The notes below the pieces were generated by a model. That model was given only the letters and a program-made list of their open reading frames with translations. It was not told where the DNA came from and made no database searches. This document shows, piece after piece, positions 13,119 to 62,822 of a DNA stretch of 64,000 nucleotides. Made by a program: the position numbers and the translations under genes. Where the stretch lies: sequence record OR062945.1. One strand, given 5' to 3'. How positions within the stretch are numbered: the stretch's first letter is position 1; each line of letters starts with the position of its first letter. The stretch is from Escherichia phage 308Ecol101PP.

Positions 13119-13146
13119 GACCACATCAAATTAAATGGAGAACAAC

Positions 13147-16096: not shown

Positions 16097-16098
16097 AA

Positions 16099-16467: not shown

Positions 16468-16472
16468 AGCAA

Positions 16473-16491: not shown

Positions 16492-16548
16492 GGAGTATAA
16501 TAAGTTCATCAACAAACAAAAGACAATAACTCGTCTAAAGGAAATTAA

Positions 16549-22235: not shown

Positions 22236-23411
22236 ATGCAAAAAAAAAAAATGAATACTTTTAAAATCGGAACGAATTTTGATTTAGCTCTTCTTGATAA
22301 AATCGTAGAGCTCAATAAAACTTATCCTAATAGCTTGATAAACGAAGTATACGGCTCTACAAGAGAAATGGCTTTTGTAGCAGCCAGACCTGATTTTAGG
22401 CTTCCTGACGTTGACAAAAAGATGTTAGAAGATTACGTTAAACGTTGTAACGAATTAGGTATTTGCTTTAACTATACACTCAACACGATAAATCCTGGTT
22501 CAAAAAGAGAACTAGTTGAGTGGAAGAAGAAAGCTATTCAGGATTATGTTCAGTATCTTTGGTCAATAGGCGTATGGCGTATTACTATCGCTAACCCTGT
22601 TGTTATGGAAATTGTTCGTGAAGTCAATAAAGACATTGAGATTGAAGTTTCAACAATTCTACATGTCGATGCTGTAACTCAAATCAAATACTTGCATGAC
22701 CAATATAATATCAAAAAGGTCTGCTGTGGAATTCATAAGAACCGTTCAGTTTCTTTCCTGAAACGTGCAGCAGAGTTTTGTAATAAGAACAATATAATAT
22801 TTGAAGTTCTTGTAAATGAGTTCTGTTCTAATGCTGGTAAAGGGTACACAACACATTGTAGCTATCGTGACTCTTGCTATATTTTCCATAGCACCGATGT
22901 TACAGTAGATGATGCCAAATCCTTAAATGGATATCCAATGCAACACTGTATTAAAGCTCGTGATACAGATCCATTTAACTGGTTGAGAACTCGTTTTGTT
23001 CGTCCTCAAGATTTGAAACTTTATAATGATATTGGTATCACTCAATTTAAAGTTTCAGGACGTACAGGTAGCACCGACTACATTTTAAAAGTTCTTGAAG
23101 CTTACGCTTCTGAAAAGTTTGAAGGTAATTTGTTGGAATTGTGGAAGCCTTTAGAGACCATTTTCACTCTTGAAAATGAGACTGAGTTTTCACATACGGT
23201 AAATATTGAAACCTCTTTGTTAGACGGCTTTTTAGAAAAAAGGTGGTTCAAACATCCAGATTTCGATTGTGCTAATGAAATCTGCGGGACGACGTGTACA
23301 TATTGTGAAAGATATTATAAACGTCAGTTATCTAAAAATGGGTTATCAGAAAACTCTATATCTATTATTGATATAACTAACTCTGATGACGCTTTGAGGT
23401 ACCCAGAATGA
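22236..23411 (+). CDS. hypothetical Cys-rich protein (start at ATG 22236 or 22251)
   Basis: 391 aa with many Cys (CCGIH, EFCSNAG, HCSYRDSC, CANEICGTTCTYCE); an A12 tract lies between the two candidate ATGs. Confidence 0.5.
   Translation: MQKKKMNTFKIGTNFDLALLDKIVELNKTYPNSLINEVYGSTREMAFVAARPDFRLPDVDKKMLEDYVKRCNELGICFNYTLNTINPGSKRELVEWKKKAIQDYVQYLWSIGVWRITIANPVVMEIVREVNKDIEIEVSTILHVDAVTQIKYLHDQYNIKKVCCGIHKNRSVSFLKRAAEFCNKNNIIFEVLVNEFCSNAGKGYTTHCSYRDSCYIFHSTDVTVDDAKSLNGYPMQHCIKARDTDPFNWLRTRFVRPQDLKLYNDIGITQFKVSGRTGSTDYILKVLEAYASEKFEGNLLELWKPLETIFTLENETEFSHTVNIETSLLDGFLEKRWFKHPDFDCANEICGTTCTYCERYYKRQLSKNGLSENSISIIDITNSDDALRYPE
22240..22251 (+). repeat. homopolymeric A12 tract at the 5' end of the Cys-rich gene
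   Basis: ATGCAAAAAAAAAAAATG read directly from the sequence. Confidence 0.8.
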
Positions 23412-25954: not shown

Positions 25955-27127
25955 ATGTCTGATTTAAAATCTCGTCTGATTAAAGCTTCTACTTCTAAAA
26001 TGACTGCAGACTTGACTAAGTCTAAGCTGTTTAATAATCGTGATGAAGTCCCTACTCGTATTCCGATGTTGAATATTGCATTAGGTGGTGCACTGAATGC
26101 CGGGTTGCAATCAGGCTTAACTATTTTTGCTGCTCCTTCTAAACACTTTAAAACGTTGTTTGGGCTGACCATGGTTGCAGCATATATGAAGAAATATAAA
26201 GATGCAATTTGTTTGTTCTATGATTCAGAATTTGGTGCTTCAGAATCTTATTTTCGTTCAATGGGTGTTGATTTAGACCGTGTAGTTCATACTCCTATTC
26301 AATCTGTCGAACAACTTAAAGTTGATATGACTAATCAGCTTGACGCGATTGAACGTGGTGATAAAGTTATTATCTTTATCGATTCAATCGGTAATACTGC
26401 ATCTAAGAAAGAAACCGAAGATGCGTTGAACGAGAAAGTCGTAGGTGATATGTCTCGTGCTAAGGCACTTAAATCTCTTTTCCGTATTGTGACCCCGTAT
26501 CTGACTATTAAAGATATTCCGTGTGTTGCAATTAACCATACAGCAATGGAAATCGGCGGATTGTATCCTAAAGAGATTATGGGCGGTGGTACAGGTATTC
26601 TTTATTCTGCCAACACGGTATTTTTTATCTCTAAACGTCAGGTTAAAGAAGGCACAGAATTGACCGGTTATGACTTCACGTTGAAAGCAGAAAAATCTCG
26701 AACCGTTAAAGAAAAATCTACTTTCCCAATCACGGTTAATTTTGATGGTGGTATCGACCCATTCAGTGGCTTGTTAGAAATGGCAACTGAAATTGGTTTT
26801 GTAGTTAAGCCTAAAGCCGGGTGGTATGCTCGAGAATTCCTTGACGAAGAAACAGGCGAAATGATTCGTGAAGAAAAATCATGGCGTGCTAAAGCTACTG
26901 ATTGTGTAGAATTCTGGGGACCGTTGTTTAAACACAAACCTTTCCGAGACGCAATTGAAACTAAATATAAACTAGGTGCTATCTCTTCTATTAAAGAAGT
27001 TGATGACGCTGTTAATGACCTTATTAATTGCAAAGCAACAACTAAAGTTCCGGTTAAAACTTCTGATGCACCGTCTGCAGCAGATATAGAAAACGACCTT
27101 GACGAAATGGAAGATTTCGATGAATAA
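25955..27127 (+). CDS. uvsX: RecA-like recombinase UvsX
   Basis: 390 aa; N-terminus and RecA-fold core match T4 UvsX from memory. Confidence 0.9.
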   Translation: MSDLKSRLIKASTSKMTADLTKSKLFNNRDEVPTRIPMLNIALGGALNAGLQSGLTIFAAPSKHFKTLFGLTMVAAYMKKYKDAICLFYDSEFGASESYFRSMGVDLDRVVHTPIQSVEQLKVDMTNQLDAIERGDKVIIFIDSIGNTASKKETEDALNEKVVGDMSRAKALKSLFRIVTPYLTIKDIPCVAINHTAMEIGGLYPKEIMGGGTGILYSANTVFFISKRQVKEGTELTGYDFTLKAEKSRTVKEKSTFPITVNFDGGIDPFSGLLEMATEIGFVVKPKAGWYAREFLDEETGEMIREEKSWRAKATDCVEFWGPLFKHKPFRDAIETKYKLGAISSIKEVDDAVNDLINCKATTKVPVKTSDAPSAADIENDLDEMEDFDE

Positions 27128-27461
27128 TCTCGATGATTTAAATCTAGAAATCGTTGATGAATCCCCTTCTTCGGAAGGGGAAGACATTCGCAAAGAACGA
27201 GTGTTTAATGAATCTCTTAAAATTATCCGTTCAGCAATGGAAAATGTCATTCAAGAGATTCTGATTACACTTGAAGACGGTTCTCATCATATAGTCTATA
27301 TTACAAAACTAGACTGGGTTGATGGTAAAATCGTAATGGACTTTGCAGTTCTTGACCAGGATAGAAAAGCAGAACTTGCACCACATGTTGAAAAATGTGT
27401 TACAATGCAAGTACAACAAGCTTTTAATGAACGGACCAAGAAAAAATTTAAATTCTTTTAA
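27120..27461 (+). CDS. 40: gp40 head vertex assembly chaperone (by position)
   Basis: 113 aa between uvsX and 41; track ORF begins at TTG 27099, first ATG at 27120. Confidence 0.5.
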   Translation: MNNLDDLNLEIVDESPSSEGEDIRKERVFNESLKIIRSAMENVIQEILITLEDGSHHIVYITKLDWVDGKIVMDFAVLDQDRKAELAPHVEKCVTMQVQQAFNERTKKKFKFF

Positions 27462-28913: not shown

Positions 28914-28919
28914 TAAAAA

Positions 28920-28938
28920 GGAGACTTCGGTCTCCTTT
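28920..28938 (+). terminator. hairpin with UUCG tetraloop after gene 41
   Basis: GGAGAC-TTCG-GTCTCC followed by TTTCGGGG. Confidence 0.45.
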
Positions 28939-28942: not shown

Positions 28943-28972
28943 GTTTACATCTTCCTCTAGGCATGATACGAT
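28943..28972 (+). promoter_or_regulatory. candidate early promoter (GTTTAC ... TACGAT)
   Basis: 18-nt spacing. Confidence 0.4.
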
Positions 28973-29001
28973 GTACTTACACCAACCAAGAGGAAAACAT
29001 T

Positions 29002-29376
29002 ATGAATATGTCTCAAGCAATTTTTACTGCAATCACCGAAAACACAACTGTTGAAGTAGTTTCTCCACTGGCAACCTACGTTATTCTTGCTCCTAAAACT
29101 ATTGTATCTCGTATGGAAAACATGGGCAAACGTATCGTACAAATTGTTGGAGCCGGAAATCAAAAACTTGATTATCTGCGAACCATCAAAGCTTATGAAC
29201 ATTTCCAACTCGAAAAAGGTTCTCCTATCCAGGTAGAACTCGTAAATGGTGATATCGTTCGAGCAATGTTCCATCATTTCTATGCATTGAATGACCCATC
29301 TAAAGCAGTTCGTTTAATTGCATACGACGCAAACCAAACCGAAATCAACGCAGATGTATCTAAATTACGTTTTTAA
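29002..29376 (+). CDS. hypothetical protein
   Basis: Track ORF 28963..29376 starts in the promoter; ATG 29002 has AGAGGAAAA upstream. Confidence 0.45.
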   Translation: MNMSQAIFTAITENTTVEVVSPLATYVILAPKTIVSRMENMGKRIVQIVGAGNQKLDYLRTIKAYEHFQLEKGSPIQVELVNGDIVRAMFHHFYALNDPSKAVRLIAYDANQTEINADVSKLRF

Positions 29377-29938: not shown

Positions 29939-30151
29939 ATGTATTCAACTGTGTTTAAACCATCAACATACGAATTTGCATCAACTACACAATGGAAAGC
30001 TCTTATTCTGGAAGGATGGGAACTAATGATGGACTGTGAAGCATCTGAAAAGTTTCCGCACGGCAAAGTGGACTTCGTTAAATTTGCTGTACGTCCGACT
30101 AAACGACAGATTCGTCAAGAAAAACGCAAATTTCGCAAAAGTTTAAAATAA
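29939..30151 (+). CDS. small protein with C-terminal RPTKRQIRQEKRKFRK tail
   Basis: Track ORF 29894..30151; ATG 29939 follows the dmd stop; third member of the RPTKRQ-tail family. Confidence 0.4.
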   Translation: MYSTVFKPSTYEFASTTQWKALILEGWELMMDCEASEKFPHGKVDFVKFAVRPTKRQIRQEKRKFRKSLK

Positions 30152-30894: not shown

Positions 30895-30924
30895 GTTTAC
30901 ATTATAGATGGACTATAGTATAGT
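30895..30924 (+). promoter_or_regulatory. candidate early promoter (GTTTAC ... TATAGT) with palindromic -10 region
   Basis: 18-nt spacing; GGACTATAGTATAGTAGTCC. Confidence 0.4.
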
Positions 30925-30953
30925 AGTCCTATCAAATCAACTAAGGAGTTAAA

Positions 30954-33929: not shown

Positions 33930-34451
33930 ATGGCACACTTTAACGAATGTTCACAACTTATTTCTGGTGTTGATAAAGCAGAAGAAGCTTATTTTAATGC
34001 TCTGATTCACGAAGATAAAGACCCACTTCAGGTAATGCTTGATATGCAGAAATCTTTACAGGTTCGTTTGGCAAATGACAAGCCTGAACATAACAAACAT
34101 CCTGATGAATTGGCCACTGCAGGCGACGTTGTTGATTGGCTGCGTAATCAGAAAGATTATATTGATGATGAATTCCGTGAACTGCTGACTTCACTTGGTG
34201 GTATGAGCAATGGTGAAAAAGCCGCCAGCAGTGTATGGAAGCCGTGGAAAGCACAACATGCTGAATATCGTAATCGTCGTATCGATGAACTGTCTCCTGA
34301 AGACCAGCTTGAAATTAAATTTGAGATGATTGATATTCTGCACTTCGTTCTGAACATGTTCCAAGGTCTGGGTCTTTCTGCTGAAGAAATCTTTAAACTG
34401 TATTATCTGAAGAATGCTGAAAACTTTGCTCGTCAAGACCGAGGTTATTAA
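33930..34451 (+). CDS. 56: dCTP/dUTP pyrophosphatase gp56 (MazG-like)
   Basis: 173 aa starting MAHFNE with acidic MazG-type helices; track start 33915 is TTG. Confidence 0.75.
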   Translation: MAHFNECSQLISGVDKAEEAYFNALIHEDKDPLQVMLDMQKSLQVRLANDKPEHNKHPDELATAGDVVDWLRNQKDYIDDEFRELLTSLGGMSNGEKAASSVWKPWKAQHAEYRNRRIDELSPEDQLEIKFEMIDILHFVLNMFQGLGLSAEEIFKLYYLKNAENFARQDRGY

Positions 34452-34624
34452 TGGCTCGTTTAAATAAACGTCAGCTTAAGAAAGCTCATAAGAAACGTAT
34501 TGACCAACTATTTAAAAATGATAACAGTGAGCTTATTTGTAAGCTCCTGTCTAATCAGCTTCAGCATGTTAGTCAATTATCAGACCATCTACATATGGTT
34601 GATTGGGTTGCAAATGAAACTTGA
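34451..34624 (+). CDS. hypothetical small basic protein (57 aa, not in ORF track)
   Basis: Hand-translated; N-terminus MARLNKRQLKKAHKKR resembles the RPTKRQ tail motif. Confidence 0.3.
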   Translation: MARLNKRQLKKAHKKRIDQLFKNDNSELICKLLSNQLQHVSQLSDHLHMVDWVANET

Positions 34625-34838
34625 TTTTTATGCATGGCAAAAAGCCGGGAGACCGGCTAATAAAGCATTCGGCTCTGATGGATATAATACTAGACTCCAC
34701 TGGAAATTTAATACTCCAGATGATTATTCTCCGGTAATAATTAACGGTGATGTTGTTATATTAGCTAAATTCGGATATTTTATTGTCCCGAAGAAATTCA
34801 TTATAAATACACCTGTAATTAAACAACAAAGGAGTTAA
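34614..34838 (+). CDS. hypothetical protein
   Basis: Internal ATG of track ORF 34500..34838. Confidence 0.3.
   Translation: MKLDFYAWQKAGRPANKAFGSDGYNTRLHWKFNTPDDYSPVIINGDVVILAKFGYFIVPKKFIINTPVIKQQRS
34802..34809 (+). promoter_or_regulatory. T4-type late promoter (TATAAATA) upstream of soc
   Basis: Exact TATAAATA about 31 nt upstream of the soc ATG. Confidence 0.55.
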
Positions 34839-34840: not shown

Positions 34841-35077
34841 ATGGGTGGTTATGTAAACATCAAAACCTTTACGCATCCTGCTGGTGAAGGTAAAGAAGTT
34901 AAAGGTATGGAAGTTTCTGTGCCGTTTGAGATTTATTCAAACGAACATCGGATTGCAGATTCTCATTACCAAATCTTTCCATCAGAAAAGGCAGCTTATT
35001 CTACTGTAGTTTCTGATGCAGCTGACTGGAAAACTAAGAACGCTGCAATGTTTACCCCTACACCAGTAAGTGGTTAA
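34841..35077 (+). CDS. soc: small outer capsid protein Soc
   Basis: 78 aa with GYVNIKTF...YQIFPSEKAAYSTV, matching T4 Soc from memory; has its own late promoter. Confidence 0.7.
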   Translation: MGGYVNIKTFTHPAGEGKEVKGMEVSVPFEIYSNEHRIADSHYQIFPSEKAAYSTVVSDAADWKTKNAAMFTPTPVSG

Positions 35078-35086
35078 ATAATTTAA

Positions 35087-35113
35087 GGAATCCTTCGGGG
35101 TTCCTTTTTTTTT
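35087..35113 (+). terminator. rho-independent terminator (UUCG tetraloop) after soc
   Basis: GGAATCC-TTCG-GGGTTCC followed by T9. Confidence 0.7.
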
Positions 35114-35122: not shown

Positions 35123-35152
35123 GTTTACAAACACTAAAAACTGTGTTAAGAT
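35123..35152 (+). promoter_or_regulatory. candidate early promoter (GTTTAC ... TAAGAT)
   Basis: 18-nt spacing. Confidence 0.4.
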
Positions 35153-36592: not shown

Positions 36593-36620
36593 TTTACATT
36601 CCCTCCTCTCGTGTTATGAT
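36592..36620 (+). promoter_or_regulatory. early promoter (GTTTAC, 17 nt, TATGAT) upstream of modA
   Basis: Hexamers read directly. Confidence 0.45.
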
Positions 36621-36647
36621 AGGCTTATCTTTAAATGGAGGTCTATC

Positions 36648-44149: not shown

Positions 44150-44572
44150 ATGGCTTTTAAAGGTTTTGAAGTTGGTAAGAAATATCGTATTATCAAAGGA
44201 CAGGAAGATAATTTCTTGAGAATTCTTAATACGACTGGTAAACGTCTTAACACTACTCTGCATACAGTTTTATTATCAAGAGATTTTATCGTAGAAGAGA
44301 TGATTGGTTACGGTGTTTCAATGATTGCCGCTGAAACCGATGGACCTGGACGTACAATCATTAGTATGCAAGGTGATATTCTGATTTATGGTGCAGAATT
44401 TAAATTCTTTGAAGAAGTTCCGGAACCAGATACAACTGTCGATTTCAAAAAAGGCTCTATAGAATTTGTTGATGGTTCGGTGATCGTATCAGGCGATGTG
44501 GTCATTACAGTTAAAAGTGAACAAGGGCGTTTGGCTGCAATTGATGCACTTCAGAAAATTAAATTTAAATAA
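44150..44572 (+). CDS. hypothetical protein
   Basis: 140-aa ORF followed by a strong terminator. Confidence 0.5.
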   Translation: MAFKGFEVGKKYRIIKGQEDNFLRILNTTGKRLNTTLHTVLLSRDFIVEEMIGYGVSMIAAETDGPGRTIISMQGDILIYGAEFKFFEEVPEPDTTVDFKKGSIEFVDGSVIVSGDVVITVKSEQGRLAAIDALQKIKFK

Positions 44573-44590
44573 GGGCTTCGGCCCTTTTTG
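44573..44590 (+). terminator. rho-independent terminator (UUCG tetraloop)
   Basis: GGGC-TTCG-GCCC followed by T5. Confidence 0.6.
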
Positions 44591-44635
44591 CTTTAGATTT
44601 CGGATGATAGAATACCTTCATAACGAGGAGACAAC

Positions 44636-47901: not shown

Positions 47902-50115
47902 ATGATTATTGAAACGGCTAAAGAAACGATTATTGGTTCAGGCGGTAAGAGCACAGCATTTACTATTCAAGGCAATAGCAAAGTTTATAAGATTTTGTCT
48001 AATGACCTTTATACAAACAAAGAATTGGCTTGTGTACGTGAATTAATCACAAACTGTATTGATGGGCAAATTCTTAATGGTTGCACTGATAAGTTTATTG
48101 TTCAGGCTCCAGGTCGTTTAGACCCACGTTTTGTAGTTCGTGATTTTGGACCTGGTATGAGTGATTTCACTATTCGTGGTAATGACGAAGAGCCAGGAAT
48201 TTATAACTCATATTTTGCTTCAACTAAAACATCGAGTAACGATTTCATTGGTGGATTCGGACTCGGCTCTAAAGCTCCATTAGCATATACTGATACGTTT
48301 AACCTTACGTCTTATCATAATGGTGAAGTTCGTGGTTACGTAATCTACCAAGATGACACAGGTCCACAGATTAAGCCGACCTTTGTAGATAAGATGGGTC
48401 CTGATGACCGTACGGGTGTAGAAGTAGTTGTACCGGTTAACCCGGAAGATTTTGAAAAGTTTGCATCCGAAATTGCATATGTTATGCGTCCTCTAGGTGA
48501 TATTGCAGAAGTTCGTGGTGTTAAAGATATTAAATACTTCCCAGAATTTGATGATGTATATTTGGCCAAGGAAGCTCCATGGGGTGAACGTGGTAATATC
48601 ATGGCTGTTTATGGCGGTATTGTATATCCAATCGGAAGTGTTATTAAAGAACAAACATGGATGATGACACGATGCACTACAGCTTATATTAAATTCCCAA
48701 TGGGTGAACTAGATGTTGCTCCGTCTCGCGAAGCATTGTCATTTGATAAACGTACAGTAGCAAATATCCATAAACGCGTTGCAGAAATCGATGCTAAATT
48801 GTTCGCTGAAGATTCTAAGAAATGGATTGATTGTAAATACCCACGACATGTGTTCCGCGAAATTGATTCTCTTGGCTATACCGCTCGTAAATACATGGAA
48901 AAGGCCGGGTCTAATATTGAATCACTGAAATACTCTAAAGAACAACTAACTTATTCTGAGTTGTACAAACGTTTTAAAATGGGACCTGAGTGGTGTAATC
49001 TTGGTGTCGTATACGATATCGTTGAATCCCCTCGTCTTCGTCGTATTCGTGAAAGTGGTAGCTCATCATCAACCATTTCAATTAACAGCCTGATTGGCAT
49101 TAACATTAAAAACGTTGAAATTGTTATTGACGATGTTAAGGGACGCGTTCCATTAATGCGAGCTCTTAATTCAATTGAAATGTCTAAAGACGAGGTTAAA
49201 TTATCCGGTAAAGTTCCACGCGGTTTTGGTAAAAGCGTACTATTCGTTGACCCTACAGACGAAGATGCAATGAAACTTCTGGAACGCCTTAAAGTTATCT
49301 TTGATGGCGACAACATTAACATGTACAAGACTTCAGAGCTTTTACAAATCGTTAAGCCATGGATTGAAGTCAGGAAACGGACTAATGAGCCTCGTCCTAA
49401 ATCCCCGAGTGCTCATCGATTCTTTAAGAATGAAAACGATGTTTGGGTATCAGAAGACCTCTTTATTCCGGCAAGTGAAGCAGATGAAATCCAAGGTTAT
49501 GCTATAGTTCGTAATCGTTCTAATGCTGAATGTCTTGACGCAGATAAAGGTTGGTTGAACTATGACTCCAATTTCTTGACCCGTATTGCTGATTTGTCAG
49601 GTATTAAAGAGTTCACTGTAGTTCGTCCACAGATTGCTAAGAAAGTTCGTAAACTTGGTGAAGTAGAATGCTTGTTCGAAAAATCAATTAATGACTATAT
49701 TACGCTAATTGATAAAGTGGATTATGATGAGTATGTATCACCAAGTCGTAGAGCACAGCCTTATTTGAATCATATTACTCGTAACGAAGAGCTTAACTTC
49801 CTTAGTAAGTATTTTAGCTCTAAGAACAAAGAAATCAGTAAAGACTTTGCAAAACTCTCAACAGTAAATAATCGTTGGGGATGGAATCGATTCGCAGGTG
49901 CTACTAATACAGACCTGAATAAGAAGTTAGAATTGTGTGCTAAAATTTTCGATAAGCTTAAAGATAATGCTTACGATAATGATGATAAAATGGTTATTGA
50001 ATTCGAAACCAATTATCATATTGTGTCAGAATACATGGGACGACGTGGTACTCTTTCCAAAGAACAGGTCGCTCAAATCGTTAAATTCATGAAGGCCGTG
50101 GAAGCGGCCAAATAA
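47902..50115 (+). CDS. rIIA: rIIA protein
   Basis: 737 aa (T4 rIIA about 725 aa), N-terminal ATPase-like region, position upstream of rIIB. Confidence 0.8.
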   Translation: MIIETAKETIIGSGGKSTAFTIQGNSKVYKILSNDLYTNKELACVRELITNCIDGQILNGCTDKFIVQAPGRLDPRFVVRDFGPGMSDFTIRGNDEEPGIYNSYFASTKTSSNDFIGGFGLGSKAPLAYTDTFNLTSYHNGEVRGYVIYQDDTGPQIKPTFVDKMGPDDRTGVEVVVPVNPEDFEKFASEIAYVMRPLGDIAEVRGVKDIKYFPEFDDVYLAKEAPWGERGNIMAVYGGIVYPIGSVIKEQTWMMTRCTTAYIKFPMGELDVAPSREALSFDKRTVANIHKRVAEIDAKLFAEDSKKWIDCKYPRHVFREIDSLGYTARKYMEKAGSNIESLKYSKEQLTYSELYKRFKMGPEWCNLGVVYDIVESPRLRRIRESGSSSSTISINSLIGINIKNVEIVIDDVKGRVPLMRALNSIEMSKDEVKLSGKVPRGFGKSVLFVDPTDEDAMKLLERLKVIFDGDNINMYKTSELLQIVKPWIEVRKRTNEPRPKSPSAHRFFKNENDVWVSEDLFIPASEADEIQGYAIVRNRSNAECLDADKGWLNYDSNFLTRIADLSGIKEFTVVRPQIAKKVRKLGEVECLFEKSINDYITLIDKVDYDEYVSPSRRAQPYLNHITRNEELNFLSKYFSSKNKEISKDFAKLSTVNNRWGWNRFAGATNTDLNKKLELCAKIFDKLKDNAYDNDDKMVIEFETNYHIVSEYMGRRGTLSKEQVAQIVKFMKAVEAAK

Positions 50116-50124
50116 GGAAACATT

Positions 50125-51072
50125 ATGTACAATATTAAATGCTTGTCCCAAGAAGAACAGTTAGAAGCTTACGGCCTGGTTGAATCAGGCAAATGGACTC
50201 GTAAAGAAATTGCCGATTACTTCGACATTTCAACAGATACTCTTCGTAAGATTGTTAAGAATTTTAAAGCAGAAGGCGTTGTCCCTGAAGCAAACGATGC
50301 CTCTTATGTAATCGAAGAAGTTCCAGAAAATGATGAACCTATTATCGGCGGACATCGTCCTGAAATCGTATGGAACGCGTCATCTAAATTTATTTCAATT
50401 ATTGAAGGACGCGTAGCATACAATGCGACTCCATCAAGTCATGCAAATTTTGAAGAAATTAAAGCTAATCTGGTCGCAGGAAACCTTAGTAAAGCTGTCG
50501 AACTTATTAACATCAAGAAAGCTATTAGTAAGTTTGTTGACGGTAATGTTGTTATTGAAGGTGGTAGTTTATTTTATCAAGGTATAGAGATTCGTTCTGG
50601 CCTGGTTAATCGTATTATTGATTCTATGGAAAAAGGCGAAGACTTTAAATTCTATCTACCGTTCCTTGAAAACCTGTTAGAAAACCCAAGCGAAAAAGCT
50701 GTACAACGTTTATTCGACTTCTTGGTTGCAAATGATATTGAAATCACTGAAGATGGGCATTTCTACGCGTGGAAAGTAGTTCGTAAAGATTATTTAGATT
50801 GCTATAGCGGTACATTTGATAACTCACCAGGTAAAGTTGTTTCAATGCCTCGTACTCGTGTTAACGATGATGATACACAAACCTGCTCCCGTGGTCTACA
50901 TGTTTGCGCTAAATCGTATATTCGTTACTTTGGTTCTAGCTCAGATAAAGTTGTTAAGGTTAAAGTTCATCCACGTGATGTTGTGTCCATCCCAGTTGAC
51001 TATGGCGATGCTAAGATGCGTACTTGTCGTTATGAAGTAATTTCAGACGTTACTGAATTATTTGCAGAATAA
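50125..51072 (+). CDS. rIIB: rIIB protein
   Basis: 315 aa (T4 rIIB 312 aa), by position after rIIA. Confidence 0.75.
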   Translation: MYNIKCLSQEEQLEAYGLVESGKWTRKEIADYFDISTDTLRKIVKNFKAEGVVPEANDASYVIEEVPENDEPIIGGHRPEIVWNASSKFISIIEGRVAYNATPSSHANFEEIKANLVAGNLSKAVELINIKKAISKFVDGNVVIEGGSLFYQGIEIRSGLVNRIIDSMEKGEDFKFYLPFLENLLENPSEKAVQRLFDFLVANDIEITEDGHFYAWKVVRKDYLDCYSGTFDNSPGKVVSMPRTRVNDDDTQTCSRGLHVCAKSYIRYFGSSSDKVVKVKVHPRDVVSIPVDYGDAKMRTCRYEVISDVTELFAE

Positions 51073-51077
51073 TAATT

Positions 51078-51100
51078 GGGGACTTCGGTCCCCTTTTTTT
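51078..51100 (+). terminator. rho-independent terminator (UUCG tetraloop) after rIIB
   Basis: GGGGAC-TTCG-GTCCCC followed by T7. Confidence 0.7.
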
Positions 51101-51114
51101 CTTTAGGGGTAATT

Positions 51115-51402
51115 ATGATTCATCCATTTGACGTATCAGAATCCAAAATTGCTAATCTTCGTGGTCATCATAAGTGTAAATCAGTTTATTGTGCTAAATT
51201 GGTAAAACATCCTGGCGATGCACACTATGGTTGGTTAGAATGCGACGAAGTTGTTATTGAAATCCCACCGGTAGATGCAGAATATCTTGAAGAAGGTGAC
51301 CGCATTTATTTTGGCGAACTACACATCAGAGGTATCTATGGTAAAGACGAACTTGGGACTGTTGAGACTGAAGAATCTTCCGACATTTATCCTGTCGAAT
51401 GA
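51115..51402 (+). CDS. hypothetical protein
   Basis: Track ORF 51076 begins inside the terminator; ATG 51115 has TAGGGGTAATT upstream. Confidence 0.4.
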   Translation: MIHPFDVSESKIANLRGHHKCKSVYCAKLVKHPGDAHYGWLECDEVVIEIPPVDAEYLEEGDRIYFGELHIRGIYGKDELGTVETEESSDIYPVE

Positions 51403-51418
51403 GTTTTTGACTAGTGAA

Positions 51419-51895
51419 ATGAAGGTGAAGATTGCTGACACTGCTCGGTATTCCCTGAGCCAAAATCCTGACCAAAACAAAGAAGATGTAGTTCGACGTT
51501 GTAAGGTTGCGGTCTTTGCAGAGTATGTAGTAGCAAATTGGCTAGACGGATATGTTAATAAAGGTATTGAAGACGTAGAAGACCCGTACACGTATGCATG
51601 GGACGTGTTAGCCCATCCCAAGTATTGTGGAATTCGTGTAGAAGTCAAGACACACCAGATAGATTCTAAATGGATTTCTGTTACCACAGGATACAGTGGT
51701 GATTATCCAGGTGGCAACGGAATCAACATAGGGCCCTTCTTGAACCATCGAGTCGCAGATTGCATTATTATATTAGATGTCAAAGAAACCTCACCTGACG
51801 TCTTCTCTTATTCTATAAAGTTCGTGGGAGACCATGAAGACCTAAAGAAAATCGTCCGCAAGAGCAACTACAACGGGTGGTATCTTCAACTTTAA
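51419..51895 (+). CDS. hypothetical protein at the T4 denB position (start uncertain)
   Basis: Internal ATG of track ORF 51275..51895 after the previous stop. Confidence 0.4.
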   Translation: MKVKIADTARYSLSQNPDQNKEDVVRRCKVAVFAEYVVANWLDGYVNKGIEDVEDPYTYAWDVLAHPKYCGIRVEVKTHQIDSKWISVTTGYSGDYPGGNGINIGPFLNHRVADCIIILDVKETSPDVFSYSIKFVGDHEDLKKIVRKSNYNGWYLQL

Positions 51896-51907
51896 TTTCA
51901 TAAAAGT

Positions 51908-51937
51908 GTTTACAACTAAGTAGGACTATGATATAGT
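51908..51937 (+). promoter_or_regulatory. candidate early promoter (GTTTAC ... TATAGT) with palindromic -10 region
   Basis: 18-nt spacing; TAGGACTATGATATAGTAGTCCTA. Confidence 0.45.
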
Positions 51938-51963
51938 AGTCCTATCTAAAAGAGGATAACATC

Positions 51964-52227
51964 ATGAAATTTAAATTTTTCTACGCAAAACATAAAGTAA
52001 CAGGCGAATTTGTTTCAATGTACAACACTGCAGATGACGAAGGGATGATTTATACCCATTTGGGTCTATCTCATTGGGACTCAGACGTGCCTTATATGTC
52101 ATCTGAAGCCGAAATAACTCGTCTGGTTAATGGACATATGAACTACCATTTTAGTGTTATTCTTTCTAAAGACCTTAAAGAGGTTATCAACAAAGGATAT
52201 ATGGAACTCGCGGAAGTTGAGATATGA
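51964..52227 (+). CDS. hypothetical protein
   Basis: 87-aa ORF with AGAGGATAACATC upstream. Confidence 0.45.
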   Translation: MKFKFFYAKHKVTGEFVSMYNTADDEGMIYTHLGLSHWDSDVPYMSSEAEITRLVNGHMNYHFSVILSKDLKEVINKGYMELAEVEI

Positions 52228-52419
52228 GCTCTAAAATGTGGATCGGAATATGGTTGCTTAGTATCCCTATGATTTGTATAGTATTTTCAATTGTATTGAG
52301 GTACTTATGAAAAATGCACTTATTATTGTACTAAGAACAATTTGTGATACGGGTTTTTACATCGCATGTTCGTTCACTGGATCATGGTTGGCTTTAACAT
52401 ATTTTAATGTAATTTAATT

Positions 52420-52449
52420 GTTTACAACAAGGTAGGATTATGGTATAGT
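52420..52449 (+). promoter_or_regulatory. candidate early promoter (GTTTAC ... TATAGT)
   Basis: 18-nt spacing; GTAGGA/TCCTAC palindrome. Confidence 0.45.
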
Positions 52450-52477
52450 AGTCCTACTGAAACATGAGGAACACAAA

Positions 52478-52678
52478 ATGGCTAAGCTTTTTAAAGATGT
52501 TGAAATTGGTGAAAAATTTGTTCTGAATAATGGTCAGCAGCTTATTCGTGTAGCTTCTATCGCCGGACAAACTCATAACTGTATCGCCACAACGTGTTGG
52601 ACTCGATTCTTTATTGAAGATGACACTGAATGTTTAACTATTGAAGAGCTTTTTGAACGTTCTGATATAGCCGAATAA
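52478..52678 (+). CDS. hypothetical protein
   Basis: 66-aa ORF with GAGGAACACAAA upstream. Confidence 0.45.
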   Translation: MAKLFKDVEIGEKFVLNNGQQLIRVASIAGQTHNCIATTCWTRFFIEDDTECLTIEELFERSDIAE

Positions 52679-52680
52679 AA

Positions 52681-52716
52681 TTGTACAAACTCTTGAGAGC
52701 AGAGTATAATGCTCTC
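52681..52716 (+). promoter_or_regulatory. candidate promoter (TTGTAC, 18 nt, TATAAT) with GAGAGC/GCTCTC inverted repeat; copy of the 7399 element
   Basis: 33 nt near-identical to 7402-7434. Confidence 0.45.
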
Positions 52717-52754
52717 ATGGATTACAAAAACATTAATCAATTGAGGAAATTAGC

Positions 52755-53201
52755 ATGTCCAAATATTTAACTCGTAAAGACCTTCTGGCAGTTGGCGGTG
52801 AAGTTGTTGCAGTAGTTCGTAATGGCGAATACGGTTCTGAAGTTTCTAAAGAGTTTCGTTCTCGTGAAGGTTTTTACTTCTTTGTTAAAGGTTCATCTGA
52901 CTGGCGTCAAGTTGCAGCACGATTCTTTGTAGGACGTCAACGTTCTAAACAAGGGTTGGATGCAATTCTTTCTCACATTCGTCAAGGCCGTTCGCAACTA
53001 GCCCGTACTATGGGCACTAACAATATTGAATATGATGTAATCTTTGTTGCAGCTAAGAACATGAAACCCCTGACTACTGGTTATGGTAAAGGACAATTGG
53101 CTCTGGCATTCACTCGCAATCATACATCAGAATATCAAACACTCACTGAAATGAACCGTCTTCTGGCAGATAATTTCAAATTCGTTCTGCAGAGTTACTA
53201 A
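52755..53201 (+). CDS. ndd: nucleoid disruption protein Ndd
   Basis: 148 aa with [13 protein letters not shown]...[14 protein letters not shown]...[13 protein letters not shown]...[12 protein letters not shown]; matches T4 Ndd from memory. Confidence 0.75.
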
Positions 53202-53209
53202 TTTATACG

Positions 53210-53240
53210 GGCCTATTAAGTTAGGCCTTTAATTTATTTT
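53210..53240 (+). terminator. rho-independent terminator after ndd
   Basis: GGCCTA-TTAAGT-TAGGCC followed by a T-rich tract. Confidence 0.5.
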
Positions 53241-53253
53241 TGAGGTAATTAAA

Positions 53254-53403
53254 ATGGTAGCATGGATTATTGCATTGCTGTGTTGGTCGTTTTTATTCGT
53301 TAACACTTTAGTTACAGGCGAAACAACAGTATTTCAACAGGCTGTGTCACAAGGTACCTTAGCGGTCTTAGCTCTTCTTAACGTATTAAAAGGCGAGCAA
53401 TGA
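53254..53403 (+). CDS. hypothetical small membrane protein (49 aa, not in ORF track)
   Basis: Hand-translated, hydrophobic; GAGGTAATT upstream. Confidence 0.35.
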   Translation: MVAWIIALLCWSFLFVNTLVTGETTVFQQAVSQGTLAVLALLNVLKGEQ

Positions 53404-53540
53404 TTAAGAAAATCTTAGCAGGAGCCTTCGGGCTCTTGTTTTTGCTTACGGTTCTGTACTACGGTGTGATGTTTGGGCTAATCCAAGTAGTGCTTTTCAT
53501 TTCAGATGTTATAATGGTTATTCGTTCATTAATATGGTGA
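53400..53540 (+). CDS. hypothetical small membrane protein (46 aa, not in ORF track)
   Basis: Hand-translated, hydrophobic; ATGA overlap with previous. Confidence 0.35.
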   Translation: MIKKILAGAFGLLFLLTVLYYGVMFGLIQVVLFISDVIMVIRSLIW

Positions 53541-53544
53541 AAAT

Positions 53545-54870
53545 ATGCAATTGAATTCTCGTAATCTAAAAAGTATTATTGATAACGAAGCCTTAGCATA
53601 TGCGATGTACACCGTTGAAAACCGTGCAATCCCAAACATGATTGATGGATTTAAGCCGGTTCAACGTTTTGTGGTTCATCGTGCGTTAGATTTGGCTCGT
53701 GGTAATAAAGAAAAATTTCATAAACTTGCGTCAATTGCAGGCGGTGTTGCAGATTTAGGTTATCACCATGGTGAATCTTCTGCACAAGATGCAGGTGCAT
53801 TGATGGCTAACACATGGAACAACAACTATCCGTTGTTAGATGGCCAAGGCAACTTTGGTTCTAGAACAGTCCAAAAAGCTGCAGCATCTCGTTATATTTT
53901 TGCTCGTGTAAGTAAAAATTTCTATAACGTATATAAAGATACTGAATATGCTCCAGCTCATGAAGATAAAGAACACATTCCACCAAAATTCTATCTTCCT
54001 ATTATTCCGACAGTTCTTTTGAATGGTGTCTCTGGTATTGCAACCGGTTACGCAACAAATATTCTGCCTCATAGTTTTAAATCAGTCAAAAAGGCTGTAT
54101 TACAAGCTCTTCAAGGTAAAAATGTCACTAAGCCAAAAGTTGAATTCCCGGAATTCCGTGGTGAAGTACATGAAGTTGATGGGCGTTATGAGATTCACGG
54201 AACATATAAGTTCACATCTCGCACTCAAATGCAGATAACTGAAATCCCGTATAAATTCGACCGTGAAACGTATGTGAGTAAGGTTCTTGACCCGTTGGAA
54301 GACAAAGGTCTAATCTCATGGGAAGATGATTGCGGTGAACACGGCTTTGGATTTAAGGTGAAGTTCCGTAAAGAGTACTCGCTTCCTGATGATGAAGAGC
54401 TACGTCATGAAAAAATCATGAAAGATTTTAGTCTCATCGAACGTCGTTCACAAAACATCACAGTGATTAATGAAAAGGGTAAATTAGCGGTCTATGATAA
54501 CGTAGTAGACTTAATCAAAGATTTTGTTGAAGTCCGTAAGACTTACGTTCAGAAACGTATTGACAACAAAATCCTTGAATCTGAAAAAGCATTTAAACTT
54601 GCTTTTGCTAAGGCGCACTTCATCAAAAAAGTTATCAACGGTGAAATTGTGATTCAAGGCAAGACTCGTAAAGCTTTGACTGAAGAGCTAGCACAAATCG
54701 AAATGTATAAAGAACATGTCGATAAACTGGTAGGTCTTAACATCTTCCATATCACTTCCGATGAAGCACGTAAATTAGCAGAAGAAGCTAAAGCTAAGAA
54801 AGAAGAAAATGAGTATTGGAAGTCTACTGATGTTGTGACAGAGTACACTAAAGACTTGGAGGCACTTTGA
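53545..54870 (+). CDS. 52: DNA topoisomerase II medium subunit gp52 (GyrA-like)
   Basis: 441 aa (T4 gp52 about 442 aa), GyrA-like N-terminal region. Confidence 0.85.
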   Translation: MQLNSRNLKSIIDNEALAYAMYTVENRAIPNMIDGFKPVQRFVVHRALDLARGNKEKFHKLASIAGGVADLGYHHGESSAQDAGALMANTWNNNYPLLDGQGNFGSRTVQKAAASRYIFARVSKNFYNVYKDTEYAPAHEDKEHIPPKFYLPIIPTVLLNGVSGIATGYATNILPHSFKSVKKAVLQALQGKNVTKPKVEFPEFRGEVHEVDGRYEIHGTYKFTSRTQMQITEIPYKFDRETYVSKVLDPLEDKGLISWEDDCGEHGFGFKVKFRKEYSLPDDEELRHEKIMKDFSLIERRSQNITVINEKGKLAVYDNVVDLIKDFVEVRKTYVQKRIDNKILESEKAFKLAFAKAHFIKKVINGEIVIQGKTRKALTEELAQIEMYKEHVDKLVGLNIFHITSDEARKLAEEAKAKKEENEYWKSTDVVTEYTKDLEAL

Positions 54871-54946
54871 GTGCCCTAGCCTTAGGATTTCTCAGTGCAA
54901 TAGCTGCACTAGTGATTTGGCTGTATTGGTTGGACAAACATGATTA

Positions 54947-54967
54947 GGGAGCTTCGGCTCCCTTTTG
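54947..54967 (+). terminator. rho-independent terminator (UUCG tetraloop) after gene 52
   Basis: GGGAGC-TTCG-GCTCCC followed by TTTTG. Confidence 0.6.
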
Positions 54968-54989
54968 TGCATTTTTTTTTCACAAAACA

Positions 54990-55018
54990 GTTTACATGTG
55001 CTTCAAACATGATATTAT
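54990..55018 (+). promoter_or_regulatory. early promoter (GTTTAC, 17 nt, TATTAT) upstream of motA
   Basis: Followed by the TAGACCTATCAA motif. Confidence 0.5.
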
Positions 55019-55057
55019 AGACCTATCAAATCAAAACAACCAAATTGGAGAAATAAA

Positions 55058-55690
55058 ATGTCTAAAGTTACTTACATCATCAAAGCTTCTGAAAACGCTC
55101 TGAATGAAAAAACTGCTGCAATAATGGTTTATATCATTAAGAACAACTTCACCACTGCTGCCAATGTCCGTGAAGCTCTGGAAGCAGAATACAATGCATC
55201 GGTTGTTAACTCTAACATTGGTGTATTGATTAAGAAAGGTTTAGTCGAAAAATCTGGTGATGGACTTGTAGCAACAGGCGAAGCAATGGATATTATCCAA
55301 AAAGCTGCAGACCTCTTTGCCCAAGAAAATGCTCCAGAACTTCTTCAGAAACGTAACACTAGAAAAGCACGTGGAGTTACTCCTGAAATGCATGAATTAG
55401 CAAACTTTGTTTTTGAAAATATTAAAGATAAAGTTGAAGTTAAAGAAATTGGTGAAAACCGTAGTAACTTGGAAGTTCGATTCGCTAAACGAGTTCTAGG
55501 CATTCGCCAAATTGAAATTCGACGAGATGGCGCTCTTAGAATCTTTGCATACAACATGTCAGAAACTGAATCAAAGCTGTTTACTTCTCTTGAAAATGAT
55601 GTTAAGATTAAGATCGGTGGTAAATATACTTACATTGACTTCCCTAATGTGTCCAAAGAAATCATTACCCTTGTAACTAACGTACTGTGA
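55058..55690 (+). CDS. motA: middle-transcription activator MotA
   Basis: 210 aa starting MSKVTYIIKAS with SNIGVLIKKGLVEKSGDGL; matches T4 MotA from memory. Confidence 0.85.
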   Translation: MSKVTYIIKASENALNEKTAAIMVYIIKNNFTTAANVREALEAEYNASVVNSNIGVLIKKGLVEKSGDGLVATGEAMDIIQKAADLFAQENAPELLQKRNTRKARGVTPEMHELANFVFENIKDKVEVKEIGENRSNLEVRFAKRVLGIRQIEIRRDGALRIFAYNMSETESKLFTSLENDVKIKIGGKYTYIDFPNVSKEIITLVTNVL

Positions 55691-55700
55691 GGAATACATA

Positions 55701-56030
55701 ATGAATAAGCTGAATATTATTAACGAACTTCGTAAATGTGCAGAACCTACTCAGGAAGGATGGGATATTTGGTACCACGGGGCTTATTTAGGGACAATTG
55801 TAAAGATTAAAGCAGGCCAATATACGGTTATTCGTGAAAATAATGACGCGCCATTTGGCCTTCGTAAAAACTACATGGCAGCGATCAGTTCATTTGTTGA
55901 TGCAGCTTACGAAATCTATAAAGAAGATTATAAAGAATATCAACAGTCACAACCGGTTATTCGTTCGATTGGTGTAAATAAACAAGCACAAAAATCTATT
56001 TGGCAACGTATTAAGGAATGGTTTAAATGA
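55701..56030 (+). CDS. hypothetical protein
   Basis: 109-aa ORF. Confidence 0.45.
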
Positions 56031-59045: not shown

Positions 59046-59077
59046 ATTATAAAAAAGGGACAGAAGTCCCTTCTCCT
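59046..59077 (-). promoter_or_regulatory. structured translation-initiation region of gene 38 (hairpin between Shine-Dalgarno and AUG)
   Basis: Minus strand reads AAGGAGAA-GGGAC-TTCT-GTCCC-TTTTTTATAAT-ATG; the hairpin sits between the Shine-Dalgarno sequence and the start codon. Confidence 0.5.
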
Positions 59078-62000
59078 TATGCTAAACGAACGATATAGTT
59101 AAAAGCAACGTTTTTAACTGTGTTTTCTGTATTTCCTGTGGCATTTACAGTTATTGTATGACCATGAGAACCAATCGCTACCGAATGAGAGTGGGCACCA
59201 ATACCTACAGTATGTGTATGGGCACCAATACCAACGGTGTGGGCATGGTTACCTGTGGTACTTGTAGTTCCTGACCAACTATGAGTGTGGGCACCATCTG
59301 AAGAAGTTTTGGCCATATTCGACGCTGCAGTAGCACCGCTCACGGATCCAGTGATTTTAGCGTTGCCGTTTGGTCCCGCACTATTGTATCCATCATAGAA
59401 TATGCTAGTGGGTACGCCGCCTTGTATCTGAGGGCCTGAACGCGCGTGTTGGTGCGCACCAGCGGAACCAGTATTACCACTCACTGTATGGTTATGATTA
59501 CCAGTGGTATTGCTGGTCTTAGTACCATAGTCGAAGCTACTTGTCGTCTTAGTACCATAATCAAAACTTGACGTGGTCTTAGTACCCAAATCTGTGCTTG
59601 ATGCACTTGCACTATGGCTATGTGACTTAACACCGTCTGCTTCTGTACTTAGTACAGCACGCCCGGATGGTTTACCCTTGATAGTTTGACCACGCATATC
59701 AGGCAGAGCGCCGGAAGGATACACCGCAGCTAACTTAGGATACAAGCCAGCATCAAATGTTTGACCTTCCATTATGGCATAACCTTCAGGAGGTGTATCA
59801 GTAGGCCAAGGAATCGGAGCACCAATTGGATAACTTGAGACAATATCTGTCTTAAGGTTATTTATTGTGGTATTCAAGTTAGCAAAATTACCAGAACCAC
59901 CAGTAATATTACCATCAGTACCGAATTGAGCATTACCAACTTTTAATGGTTTAGTAATATCGACAGAATCAGAGTTTAATGCAATACCATGTGAATATGT
60001 GTAGCTGTGCATACGAACGACGTTGCCGCCATCGCCAATACCTAAATACCATTTCGGAACATCTGCTTTACGTCCTTGAATGAAGTTAGAAGACTCTTGT
60101 GTTGGAGCATTTATTCTAATAGCATCTGATGCCATATTTACTGTTATGCGTTGACCAGCCGTAGTACCAGTTGTATCTACTTTAAATCTACCACCGCCGA
60201 TATCTACTACATGGTCCATAGAAACTTGGCCATCGCCTAAATTGATATAAAACGGGCGAAGATTACTTATTCCACCACTTTCACCGGCATCTTTAGGAGT
60301 CGGAATAATGTACAGACTTGTTTCTGAACGTCGGAAAATAGCGCCGTATTCAGCGTTCCAAATTCTTAATGCGTCGGCTGTTCCACCGAATTTAGCTTGG
60401 CCGTTTACAGATAATCCATTATTTGCAACTAAACTTGATTCGCTAACAATAGAACCGGCCGATATAATACCACCACCCACACGTAAAGCGCCGGAAATTC
60501 TGAATTGAAGAGCACCGACAGTTTCAGAACCCGTCGGTGCTAAACGTTGAGAATAAAAATGATAGCCCTGGCCATCATACAATTCAAATACGGTTTCACG
60601 ATTACCGGCGGTGGAGTCGAATGCATTACCCCAGGCTTTCATAGTCAGATAACTTTTATTTTGTCCTGAACGGGTCCCGGCGTTCCACTGGATAGTTCTC
60701 GAGCCATCAACTTTGCTAGGGGCGCCAAATTTAAGGCCTTCGGTATTATTAGAACTATTTAAAAATAATTCGTTGTCTAATTTAACAGGTTGGATAGAAG
60801 AAATAGTGCCGTCAGCATAAAACTGTACATTATTAGAGCCAGTTACCAATTTCAAAATACCCGGATTAACTTCCATGCCTTCTTGAGTATTAATATTAGT
60901 TTTGCCTTTACCACGGAAATAGTGGTTCATTTTTCCGCCAGAATTATATCCAATATGGGTTTGACCATCTCCAGCAGAGTTTTCATCAGCCTGAGTTTGG
61001 ACTGATAAAAGAGCGGCGTTGGTTCCAGGCATAATCCATGTGGTTCCTTGGTCTTCTGAACGTCCAAATAAACCTTTGCGAGTACTACGGAAACTGTCAG
61101 GAGTAATAGAAGCAACAGAATTCCCTGAACCAACTAAATCATAAACACCGGTTTTTTTGTATGATAGCCCCGTCCCGTTATCGCCTAGAGCTAAATAAAC
61201 ACCGAATCCTAAAGCGGCACCATTACCATAGTCGCTTGACGGGTATCCTGCAGTCACAGTACCGATGGCCAGGCTATTGCGGATAATCATTCTGCCGTCA
61301 TTACGAATACCATATAATTTAAATGATGGTGTATTACCAGACCACCAAGAAACTTCATCAGCCTGGCCTGTTTGTGCAGTAACAATTTCATGATACATTG
61401 TACTACCGGATTTAGCTCGCACTTTACGAAGATAGTTTACACCATTCGTTTCGCCGGTGCCTGGATATACATAATTAACTAATGAATCTGTATCATATAC
61501 ACCAAAGGCTTTGCCACCGTGGATAACTGTATCAGCTGCAATGCGTTTAGTTACTAACGAATCTGATGCTAAAATACGGTTGGCTTGAAATTCACCGCCG
61601 TTTATAGAACGGAAATAGAATTCGCTATTAACGGTGCTTCCTGTTCCTTGTCTAACTCTAAGACGTATTTCACCATCAGTTGTAGTTTGAGGACGAGCAT
61701 ATATAACGCCTCGTTCAGTGCCATCAGCATTTTCAAACCATAAATGGGCATTTGATGTTTCACCAGGTGAAGCTCTTGTATAAAACGAACCTTGCAATGC
61801 TCTAAAAGTTTGAGCTGAAATACTAGTACCAGCGGTAATCTGGCCACTTGTGGAAAAATTTCCAAAATTGTTTATTGGCCCATTAACACGTAAAGTTCCA
61901 TTAATAGTAACGTTGCCGTCAACCTGGCCACCTTTAGCAAAGCCTAGGCTAATAATATTACCGAGGTCATCTTTAGTAAAAAGAGTTCGATCTTTTAAGT

Positions 62001-62789: not shown

Positions 62790-62797
62790 TATTTATA
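62790..62797 (-). promoter_or_regulatory. T4-type late promoter (TATAAATA on minus strand) upstream of gene 36
   Basis: Plus-strand TATTTATA about 25 nt upstream of the gene 36 start. Confidence 0.5.
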
Positions 62798-62822
62798 CAA
62801 AAATGGGAGACCGAAGTCTCCC
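62798..62822 (-). terminator. rho-independent terminator (UUCG tetraloop, minus strand) after gene 35
   Basis: Minus strand reads GGGAGAC-TTCG-GTCTCCC followed by ATTTTTG. Confidence 0.55.

Follow-up and report, generated by a model that had tools for sequence, protein, structure and literature searches.

The 64,000-nt stretch of the Escherichia phage 308Ecol101PP genome analysed here (OR062945.1; hereafter referred to as the window) carries ten strong hairpins whose UUCG loop is closed by a C-G pair, and the excess of such structures is real and far beyond chance. They can be assigned to the C(UUCG)G class of T4-type mRNA hairpins on the basis of the loop and its closing pair, their sense-strand and mostly intercistronic location, and the presence of orthologous sites in a T4-related genome. 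Taken together, the data make it quite probable that these hairpins act as compact, leaky intrinsic terminators which at the same time cap the 3' ends of the mRNAs, and that their loop has been selected convergently.

Genome context and census of the hairpins

A megablast search with bases 48000-56000 of the window matched 783 phage records, the best of which was Escherichia phage ST0 (Mosigvirus, Tevenvirinae), a relative of T4, with 98.8% identity. The window as a whole shares ~98% identity with ST0, is collinear with bases 12.0-77.1 kb of that genome, follows the T4 gene order and has a G+C content of 37%. According to the ST0 annotation, the plus strand is occupied up to ~57824 by genes nrdD/G, 55, 47, 46, 45, 44, 62, regA, 43, uvsX, 40 and 41, continued by further T4-type early and middle genes (61, soc, modA/B, dda, dexA, motB, 39, rIIA, rIIB, denB, ndd, 52, motA and asiA), and beyond this point the late genes t, 38, 37, 36, 35 and 34 are encoded on the minus strand. 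Segments with no or a weak (76%) match to ST0 are located at 1520-2070, 13081-13149, 34411-34795 and 59938-61906, the last of which lies within the distal tail fibre gene 37, where variation linked to host range is typical. Conversely, between gene 52 and motA ST0 has ~240 additional bases, which contain an ORF.

Gene calls were restricted by strand with the ST0 annotation as a guide, and spurious ORFs of the minus strand that a greedy six-frame call had produced (e.g. 15922-16509) were discarded. Queries with rIIB, gp41, gp47 and gp36 supplied approximately 100 comparison loci from viral contigs, to which bases 1-50000 of T4 and the rest of ST0 were added. Terminators and promoters are not annotated in the T4 RefSeq record, and a scan of both strands of the whole window at Rfam gathering thresholds gave zero matches. 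RB69, one of the phages in the published terminator set discussed below, is a T4-like genome with the same gene order.

All eight TTCG hairpins listed in the original prediction were found in their places, each closed by a C-G pair and possessing a stem of 6-9 bp when A-T and G-T extensions are counted. Two more, at 27162-27181 and 53417-53440, had been absent from that list, which brings the total to ten (Table 1). Every one of the ten represents the minimum-free-energy fold of the local RNA. The energies (in kcal/mol) are predicted to lie between -8.8 and -14.9 for the stem-loops alone and between -11.0 and -17.3 for segments of 42-50 nt that include flanking sequence. All ten reside on the transcribed strand, eight of them between cistrons and two (27162 and 53417) within coding sequence.

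For counting purposes, a strong tetraloop hairpin was defined as one having a stem of at least 6 bp with at least three G-C pairs; a looser count (G-U pairs allowed, stem of at least 5 bp, no G/C requirement) proved too noisy, giving 12 hairpins each for TTCG, AAAT and TTAT. By the stricter definition, the window contains ten TTCG hairpins in the sense and none in the antisense orientation, the next loop being represented at most twice, and 300 dinucleotide-preserving shuffles yielded on average 0.16 and at most 3 such hairpins on both strands together. The complementarity flanking the 32 CTTCGG hexamers of the window is bimodal, extending over either 1-3 bp or at least 6 bp. The genome-wide comparison of UUCG with other loops, which had been proposed as a check, likewise placed UUCG first: the complete ST0 genome contains 23 TTCG hairpins (22 sense, one antisense) that span both the early and the late regions, and no other loop there exceeds four. 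Among strong sense-strand tetraloop hairpins of the T4-like loci (~1.5 Mb), TTCG accounts for 141 (46 distinct stems), GAAA for 51 and the next loop for 22. The share of TTCG among all strong tetraloop hairpins is 10/69 in the window and 23/207 in ST0, as compared with 7/307 (2.3%) in a 100-kb sample of E. coli K-12, where the seven are mostly not terminator-like.

Bases 1-50000 of T4 itself contain nine sense UUCG hairpins, including the gene 60 bypass hairpin, and five of the nine occupy sites orthologous or analogous to those of the window, namely regA/43 (T4 29952-29969), within gene 40 (22329-22348), downstream of soc (15303-15324), upstream of gene 39 (5381-5398) and upstream of gene 47, where a UUCG hairpin is accompanied by a MotA box (36607-36626).

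Table 1. Coordinates of UUCG hairpins, promoter motifs and terminator-like hairpins with other loops in the window
Feature	Position	Strand	Remarks
Terminator-like hairpin GAAUGGCCCUG-guug-CAGGGUCGUUC then UUUUCG	4493-4518	+	GUUG loop; dG -17.5 kcal/mol
Terminator-like hairpin, GCC triloop	5862-5880	+	intergenic
UUCG hairpin AGGAACUC-uucg-GAGUUCCU then UUUUUU	9837-9856	+	upstream of gene 47; dG -11.2, z -3.8
Middle-promoter motif, MotA box TGCTTTA, 11 nt, TAGAAT	9861-9884	+	4 nt past the 9837 hairpin
UUCG hairpin AAUGGGAC-uucg-GUCCCAUU	16471-16490	+	3 nt past regA stop, 58 nt before gene 43; weak U-tract
Terminator-like hairpin, GUUAA loop	25841-25865	sense	T-rich tail
UUCG hairpin UCCCCUUC-uucg-GAAGGGGA	27162-27181	+	8 bp, no U-tract, dG -13.5; 34 nt past uvsX stop
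UUCG hairpin AAAGGAGAC-uucg-GUCUCCUUU	28917-28938	+	3 nt past gene 41 stop; short U-tract (UUUC)
Early-type promoter GTTTACA-N17-TACGAT	28943-28972	+	5 nt past the 28917 hairpin
UUCG hairpin AAGGAAUCC-uucg-GGGUUCCUU then U9	35085-35106	+	one U-G pair; 7 nt past stop of soc-like gene
Early-type promoter GTTTACA-N17-TAAGAT	35123-35152	+	17 nt past the 35085 hairpin
UUCG hairpin AAGGGC-uucg-GCCCUU then UUU	44571-44586	+	overlaps TAA stop of ORF 44150-44572; upstream of gene 39
Middle-promoter motif, MotA box TGCTTTA, 12 nt, TAGAAT	44589-44613	+	2 nt past the 44571 hairpin
Terminator-like hairpin, UUCU loop	46452-46469	+	after gene 39
UUCG hairpin GGGGAC-uucg-GUCCCC then U7	51078-51093	+	5 nt past rIIB stop; site flagged in the original prediction
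Terminator-like hairpin, UUAAGU loop	53209-53228	+	intergenic, after ndd
UUCG hairpin, core GAGCC-uucg-GGCUC then UUGUUUUUG	53417-53440	+	5 Watson-Crick pairs, 10 bp with G-U; dG -14.9
UUCG hairpin AGGGAGC-uucg-GCUCCCU then UUUUGUG	54946-54963	+	75 nt past gene 52 stop, upstream of motA; dG -12.4, z -4.2
Early-type promoter GTTTACA-N16-TATTAT for motA	54990-55018	+	27 nt past the 54946 hairpin; MotA-like box TGCTTCA in spacer
Terminator-like hairpin GGGAC-uucu-GUCCC then U6	59051-59076	-	between genes 37 and 38
Late promoter TATAAATA for gene 36	62790-62797	-	7 nt past the 62805 hairpin
UUCG hairpin GGGAGAC-uucg-GUCUCCC then AUUUUUG	62805-62822	-	late genes 35/36 junction, 5 nt past gene 35 stop

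Conservation of structure at orthologous sites

Covariation was assessed at the regA/43 site, where 15 distinct orthologues have kept the hairpin. In these, 93% of cells are paired and four of the eight pairs have changed on both sides, the covariation amounting to 0.387 vs. 0.149 in shuffles (0/500), a signal that is abolished by sliding the partners. The closing C-G pair is invariant, the loop is UUCG in 14 orthologues and UCCG in one, and the covariation includes G-U intermediates. The hairpin is followed in the window by a conserved sequence, GGAGTATAAT. The idea that its loop doubles as a MotA box (GCTTC) was rejected, the base before CTTCGG being variable (A, G or C) among the orthologues.

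Similar turnover of stems is seen elsewhere. Six different stems are found after gene 41 in relatives, with an invariant loop and a subsequent GTTTAC; other lineages have no hairpin at this place, and the promoter lies directly behind the stop codon. The stems downstream of soc are GGAAUCC, GGACUCC, GGAACC and GGGAACC in relatives (the soc-like gene of the window, 34841-35077, belongs to phrog_1715, virion structural protein), and those after rIIB are of four different kinds, one of them bearing a UCCG loop; in one lineage the rIIB hairpin is devoid of a U-tract and is directly followed by a Shine-Dalgarno sequence. In the case of the gene 35/36 junction, the whole unit consisting of hairpin, T-run and TATAAATA is kept across the T4-like phages, and its loop is mostly UUCG and elsewhere GAAA, GCAA, UUUG or UUAU.

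Two explanations for the uniform design had been offered originally, a shared origin and selection for the very stable UUCG loop, and it is the latter that agrees with the data: stems co-vary at orthologous sites, and C(UUCG)G is either kept or its loop exchanged for a GNRA one. Interchange of UUCG and GNRA at a single site is what would be expected of convergent selection for stability. The loop is uniform because selection has converged, site by site, on a stable and rapidly folding structure, and not because the elements descend from a common source. A shared origin would imply that the hairpins are copies of one ancestral or mobile palindromic element, similar to REP sequences, which has spread through the genome. 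Although the loop and its closing pair are identical at every site, and the 28917 and 62805 hairpins share a 16-nt core (GGAGACTTCGGTCTCC), the ten stems of the window are all different, and 46 distinct stems are recorded family-wide. Nor does any shared sequence extend beyond the stem-loops in the manner of dispersed repeats, given that the 40-nt sequences on either side do not resemble one another more closely than 40-mers drawn at random from intergenic DNA, and the single high-scoring pair (9837 and 44571) owes its similarity to a shared middle promoter. Moreover, every site has its own orthologous counterpart in distant relatives and in T4, and the loop at one site switches among UUCG, GNRA and others. 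Such an origin is therefore considered highly improbable.

The orientation of the hairpins bears on whether they function as RNA at all. Perfect or near-perfect inverted repeats, several of which adjoin promoters, might also act at the level of DNA as palindromic protein-binding sites, cruciforms or recombination signals. However, a palindrome in DNA would show no strand preference, whereas the transcribed strand carries TTCG, and not CGAA, at 10/10 sites of the window and at 22/23 of those of ST0, a bias that persists in the late region, in which the opposite strand is the sense strand. In addition, the G-U pairs in stems 35085 and 53417 would be mismatched in the complementary strand, and the covariation at regA/43 passes through G-U intermediates. 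By virtue of this strand asymmetry and of the G-U pairs, a function of the palindromes as DNA is effectively excluded.

Probable transcription-unit boundaries and mRNA 3' ends

Eight of the ten hairpins are located at the 3' ends of genes on the sense strand, with 0-7 nt separating the stop codon from the start of the hairpin; three of them (9837, 44571 and 54946) overlap the stop, the one counted for 54946 being that of a putative 26-aa ORF. The hairpin at 9837 overlaps the TAG stop of a 57-aa ORF (9665-9838). The 26-aa hydrophobic ORF, MSALALGFLSAIAALVIWLYWLDKHD (54867-54947, plus strand), overlaps the gene 52 stop with its TTG start codon and the beginning of the 54946 hairpin with its TAG stop; it matches no PHROG, and may therefore be either a genuine gene or a chance reading frame. 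At least four T residues occur in the 8 nt following the stem in seven of the ten cases (9837, 35085, 44571, 51078, 53417, 54946 and 62805), whereas the U-tract is weak at 16471 and 28917 (three T each) and essentially missing at 27162. Since three hairpins have no good U-tract and two lie inside coding sequence, not all ten can be regarded as classical terminators. Across the T4-like family, 73 of 141 UUCG hairpins have at least five T in the best 8-nt window beginning 0-2 nt past the stem.

Promoter motifs were sought as GTTTAC(A)-N16-17-TAnnAT for the early type and as a MotA box TGCTTTA with TAGAAT for the middle type. A motif is present within ~30 nt downstream of six of the ten hairpins, comprising three early, two middle (MotA box) and one late (TATAAATA) promoters. 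The terminator-promoter punctuation that had been proposed is thus a fair description of these six, yet the promoters were said to be early, which is right for only three of them. Furthermore, 10 of the 13 early-promoter-like sites of the window are not preceded by a UUCG hairpin, so that punctuation of this type is not general. The middle promoters start 2-4 nt past the stem, and the T-run of the terminator consequently doubles as the A/T stretch upstream of the MotA box.

Several further observations were made on these promoters. The two middle promoters (9857-9884 and 44587-44613) are near-identical, TGCTTTA...GGATGATAGAAT, with the MotA box adjoining the terminator T-run, and a hairpin is likewise combined with GCTTTA in T4 at 36607, 38715 and 5381. 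Inverted-repeat arms flank the -10 element of several early-type promoters (30895-30950, 51908-51960, 52420-52470 and 7105-7140), an example being TAGGACTAtgatatagTAGTCCTA at 51921-51944, and T4-type relatives show the same design behind gene 41. Of the ORFs that follow the gene 41 hairpin, the longest (28963-29376) has its start upstream of the predicted start site of the early promoter; the PHROG match begins at residue 14 of this ORF, hence the true start is probably the ATG at ~29002.

The hairpin at 51078 is followed by a Shine-Dalgarno sequence and, 21 nt later, by the ATG at 51115 of a 95-aa gene (phrog_2237). No promoter was found between the hairpin and this gene, which implies that termination at 51078 must be leaky and permit some read-through. 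From the patterns described above we infer termination and 3'-end protection by the following route. Once the host RNA polymerase has passed the stop codon, a short stem, made up of 4-7 bp of G/C that A-U or G-U pairs often lengthen, would snap shut on the exceptionally stable UUCG loop and, at the 7/10 sites with a U-tract, would constitute a compact, partly efficient intrinsic terminator. The hairpin left on the released RNA may then cap its 3' end against 3'-exonucleases, and may also hide GGAG motifs, which are present in stems 28917, 53417, 54946 and 62805, from the phage RegB nuclease. With a new early, middle or late promoter often placed within ~30 nt, such hairpins would punctuate the transcription units of a tightly packed AT-rich genome.

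Termination might, on the other hand, be minor or absent, the hairpins serving mainly after transcription as barriers to 3'-exonucleases or as folding nuclei that set and stabilise processed 3' ends. This is consistent with the conservation of hairpins lacking a U-tract (27162 with its orthologues, the window hairpins 16471 and 28917, and the one that follows rIIB in a single lineage), with the read-through needed by the gene at 51115, and with the UUCG loop of the T4 bypass hairpin. In addition, two publications credit T4 CUUCGG hairpins with several functions, including mRNA stabilisation (PMC8948821) and RegB resistance (PMC1702504). Nevertheless, a canonical U-tract, unneeded for 3'-end protection alone, directly follows the stem in 7/10 cases, about half of the family-wide hairpins are T-rich after the stem, and promoters restart right after six hairpins. 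A predominantly post-transcriptional role therefore seems rather unlikely, yet the conserved hairpins without a U-tract make a purely post-transcriptional role a serious partial rival. The two roles are not mutually exclusive. A literature search yielded no usable 3'-end mapping (Term-seq) data on T4-type phages, and likewise no usable account of UUCG loops in the terminators of E. coli.

The claim that terminators almost uniformly employ the UUCG loop is an overstatement and does not hold, as at least six terminator-like hairpins with other loops are present on the sense strand (Table 1), and UUCG accounts for roughly 8-9 of about 15 terminator candidates. Only one hairpin of the scan, and none on the transcribed strand, exceeds the stability of that at 4493; the latter is situated within the 5' end of nrdG, 32 nt past the nrdD stop, and is a further terminator-like structure inside coding sequence. 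A generic terminator pattern was matched 20, 13 and 20 times in three 20-kb segments (bases 1-60000), where 11.6, 10.9 and 11.1 matches were expected; the overall number, 53 vs. ~34 expected, is modestly above chance.

Relation to known systems and hairpins within genes

The abundance of UUCG hairpins between T4 genes is already known, and the window presents its Mosigvirus version. The unusual stability of the UUCG tetraloop was first recognised through T4 mRNA hairpins (Tuerk et al. 1988, PNAS 85:1364, as cited in PMC4371310), and CUUCGG hairpins are described as "especially abundant in T4" and as mostly intergenic in later papers (PMC8948821, citing Tuerk 1988; PMC4371310). That they abound between the cistrons of T4 has long been a textbook fact (Tuerk et al. 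1988). According to Durand et al. (PMC1702504), T4 intergenic stem-loops "like transcription terminators", often UUCG-looped, resist RegB. The hairpins of the window share with those of T4 the loop, the C-G closing pair, the intercistronic sense location and the phage family; stem sequences and the sets of sites differ, which is no difference in kind. One such difference concerns the gene 41 site, where T4 proper lacks a UUCG hairpin while the window and several other lineages have one.

Compared to intrinsic terminators of E. coli and its phages, the structures in the window have in common a G/C-rich stem after the stop codon, a U-tract at 7/10 sites and the same host RNA polymerase, but they differ by stems of unusual shortness (4-7 G/C-rich pairs), by a much greater uniformity of the loop, and by the lack of a good U-tract in 3/10. 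The efficiency of a T7 terminator was reported to be raised by a UUCG loop (Mairhofer 2015, as cited in PMC9157156); as described there, these engineered terminators follow the same principle of a UUCG cap, although they are synthetic, were tested with T7 RNA polymerase and, unlike those of the window, have longer stems. Conserved terminators have been predicted in T4 and five relatives including RB69, with the gene 35/36 site being named (Nolan et al. 2006, PMC1524935), and the 62805 hairpin corresponds to this terminator. The words "tetraloop" and "stem-loop" were not found in that paper; here, the loop is seen to be UUCG mostly and GNRA in some lineages.

The hairpins embedded in coding sequence are the only part of the set that might repay follow-up. 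The one at 27162 lies in the frame of gene 40 (27120-27461), in codons for SPSSEGE. A hairpin with dG of -9 kcal/mol or lower is located 1-60 nt past the uvsX stop in 38 of 40 distinct T4-like orthologues, as opposed to 1/40 and 0/40 in the next two 120-nt windows, which served as controls. At least 11 different stem/loop sequences are represented at this site, with the encoded peptides differing accordingly. The hairpin falls mostly within the N-terminal codons of gene 40 and has no U-tract; in lineages without such overlap with gene 40, the site is occupied by a normal terminator between genes, which has a UUCG or GAAA loop and a T-run. As a tentative proposal, to which we give somewhat less than even weight, 27162 could be an ancient functional element in RNA, defining or shielding the 3' end of the uvsX mRNA or attenuating transcription that enters genes 40-41, and its constraint may be such that the N-terminal peptide of gp40 has to co-evolve with the stem. 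The uvsX/gene 40 hairpin may already have been described in the older T4 transcript-mapping literature.

The second hairpin of this kind, 53417, is contained in a conserved ORF for a hydrophobic product of 46 aa (53400-53540, plus strand; MIKKILAGAFGLLFLL...) that matches phrog_3595 with an E value of 1.7e-22. This ORF overlaps the stop of the preceding gene through an ATGA and is unannotated in ST0, the closest RefSeq genome. Unrelated hairpins of other sequence occupy the position in relatives, and 53417 may represent a second case of an RNA element embedded in a gene.

For annotation purposes, the transcription units of an unannotated T4-like genome can be mapped quickly from the hairpins and the promoter motifs behind them, GTTTAC standing for early, a MotA box for middle and TATAAATA for late promoters. 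As regards the biology of the family, the comparative data indicate that selection targets the stability class of the loop (UNCG or GNRA) and not the ancestry of its sequence, and that RNA structure is maintained inside protein-coding sequence in at least one place.
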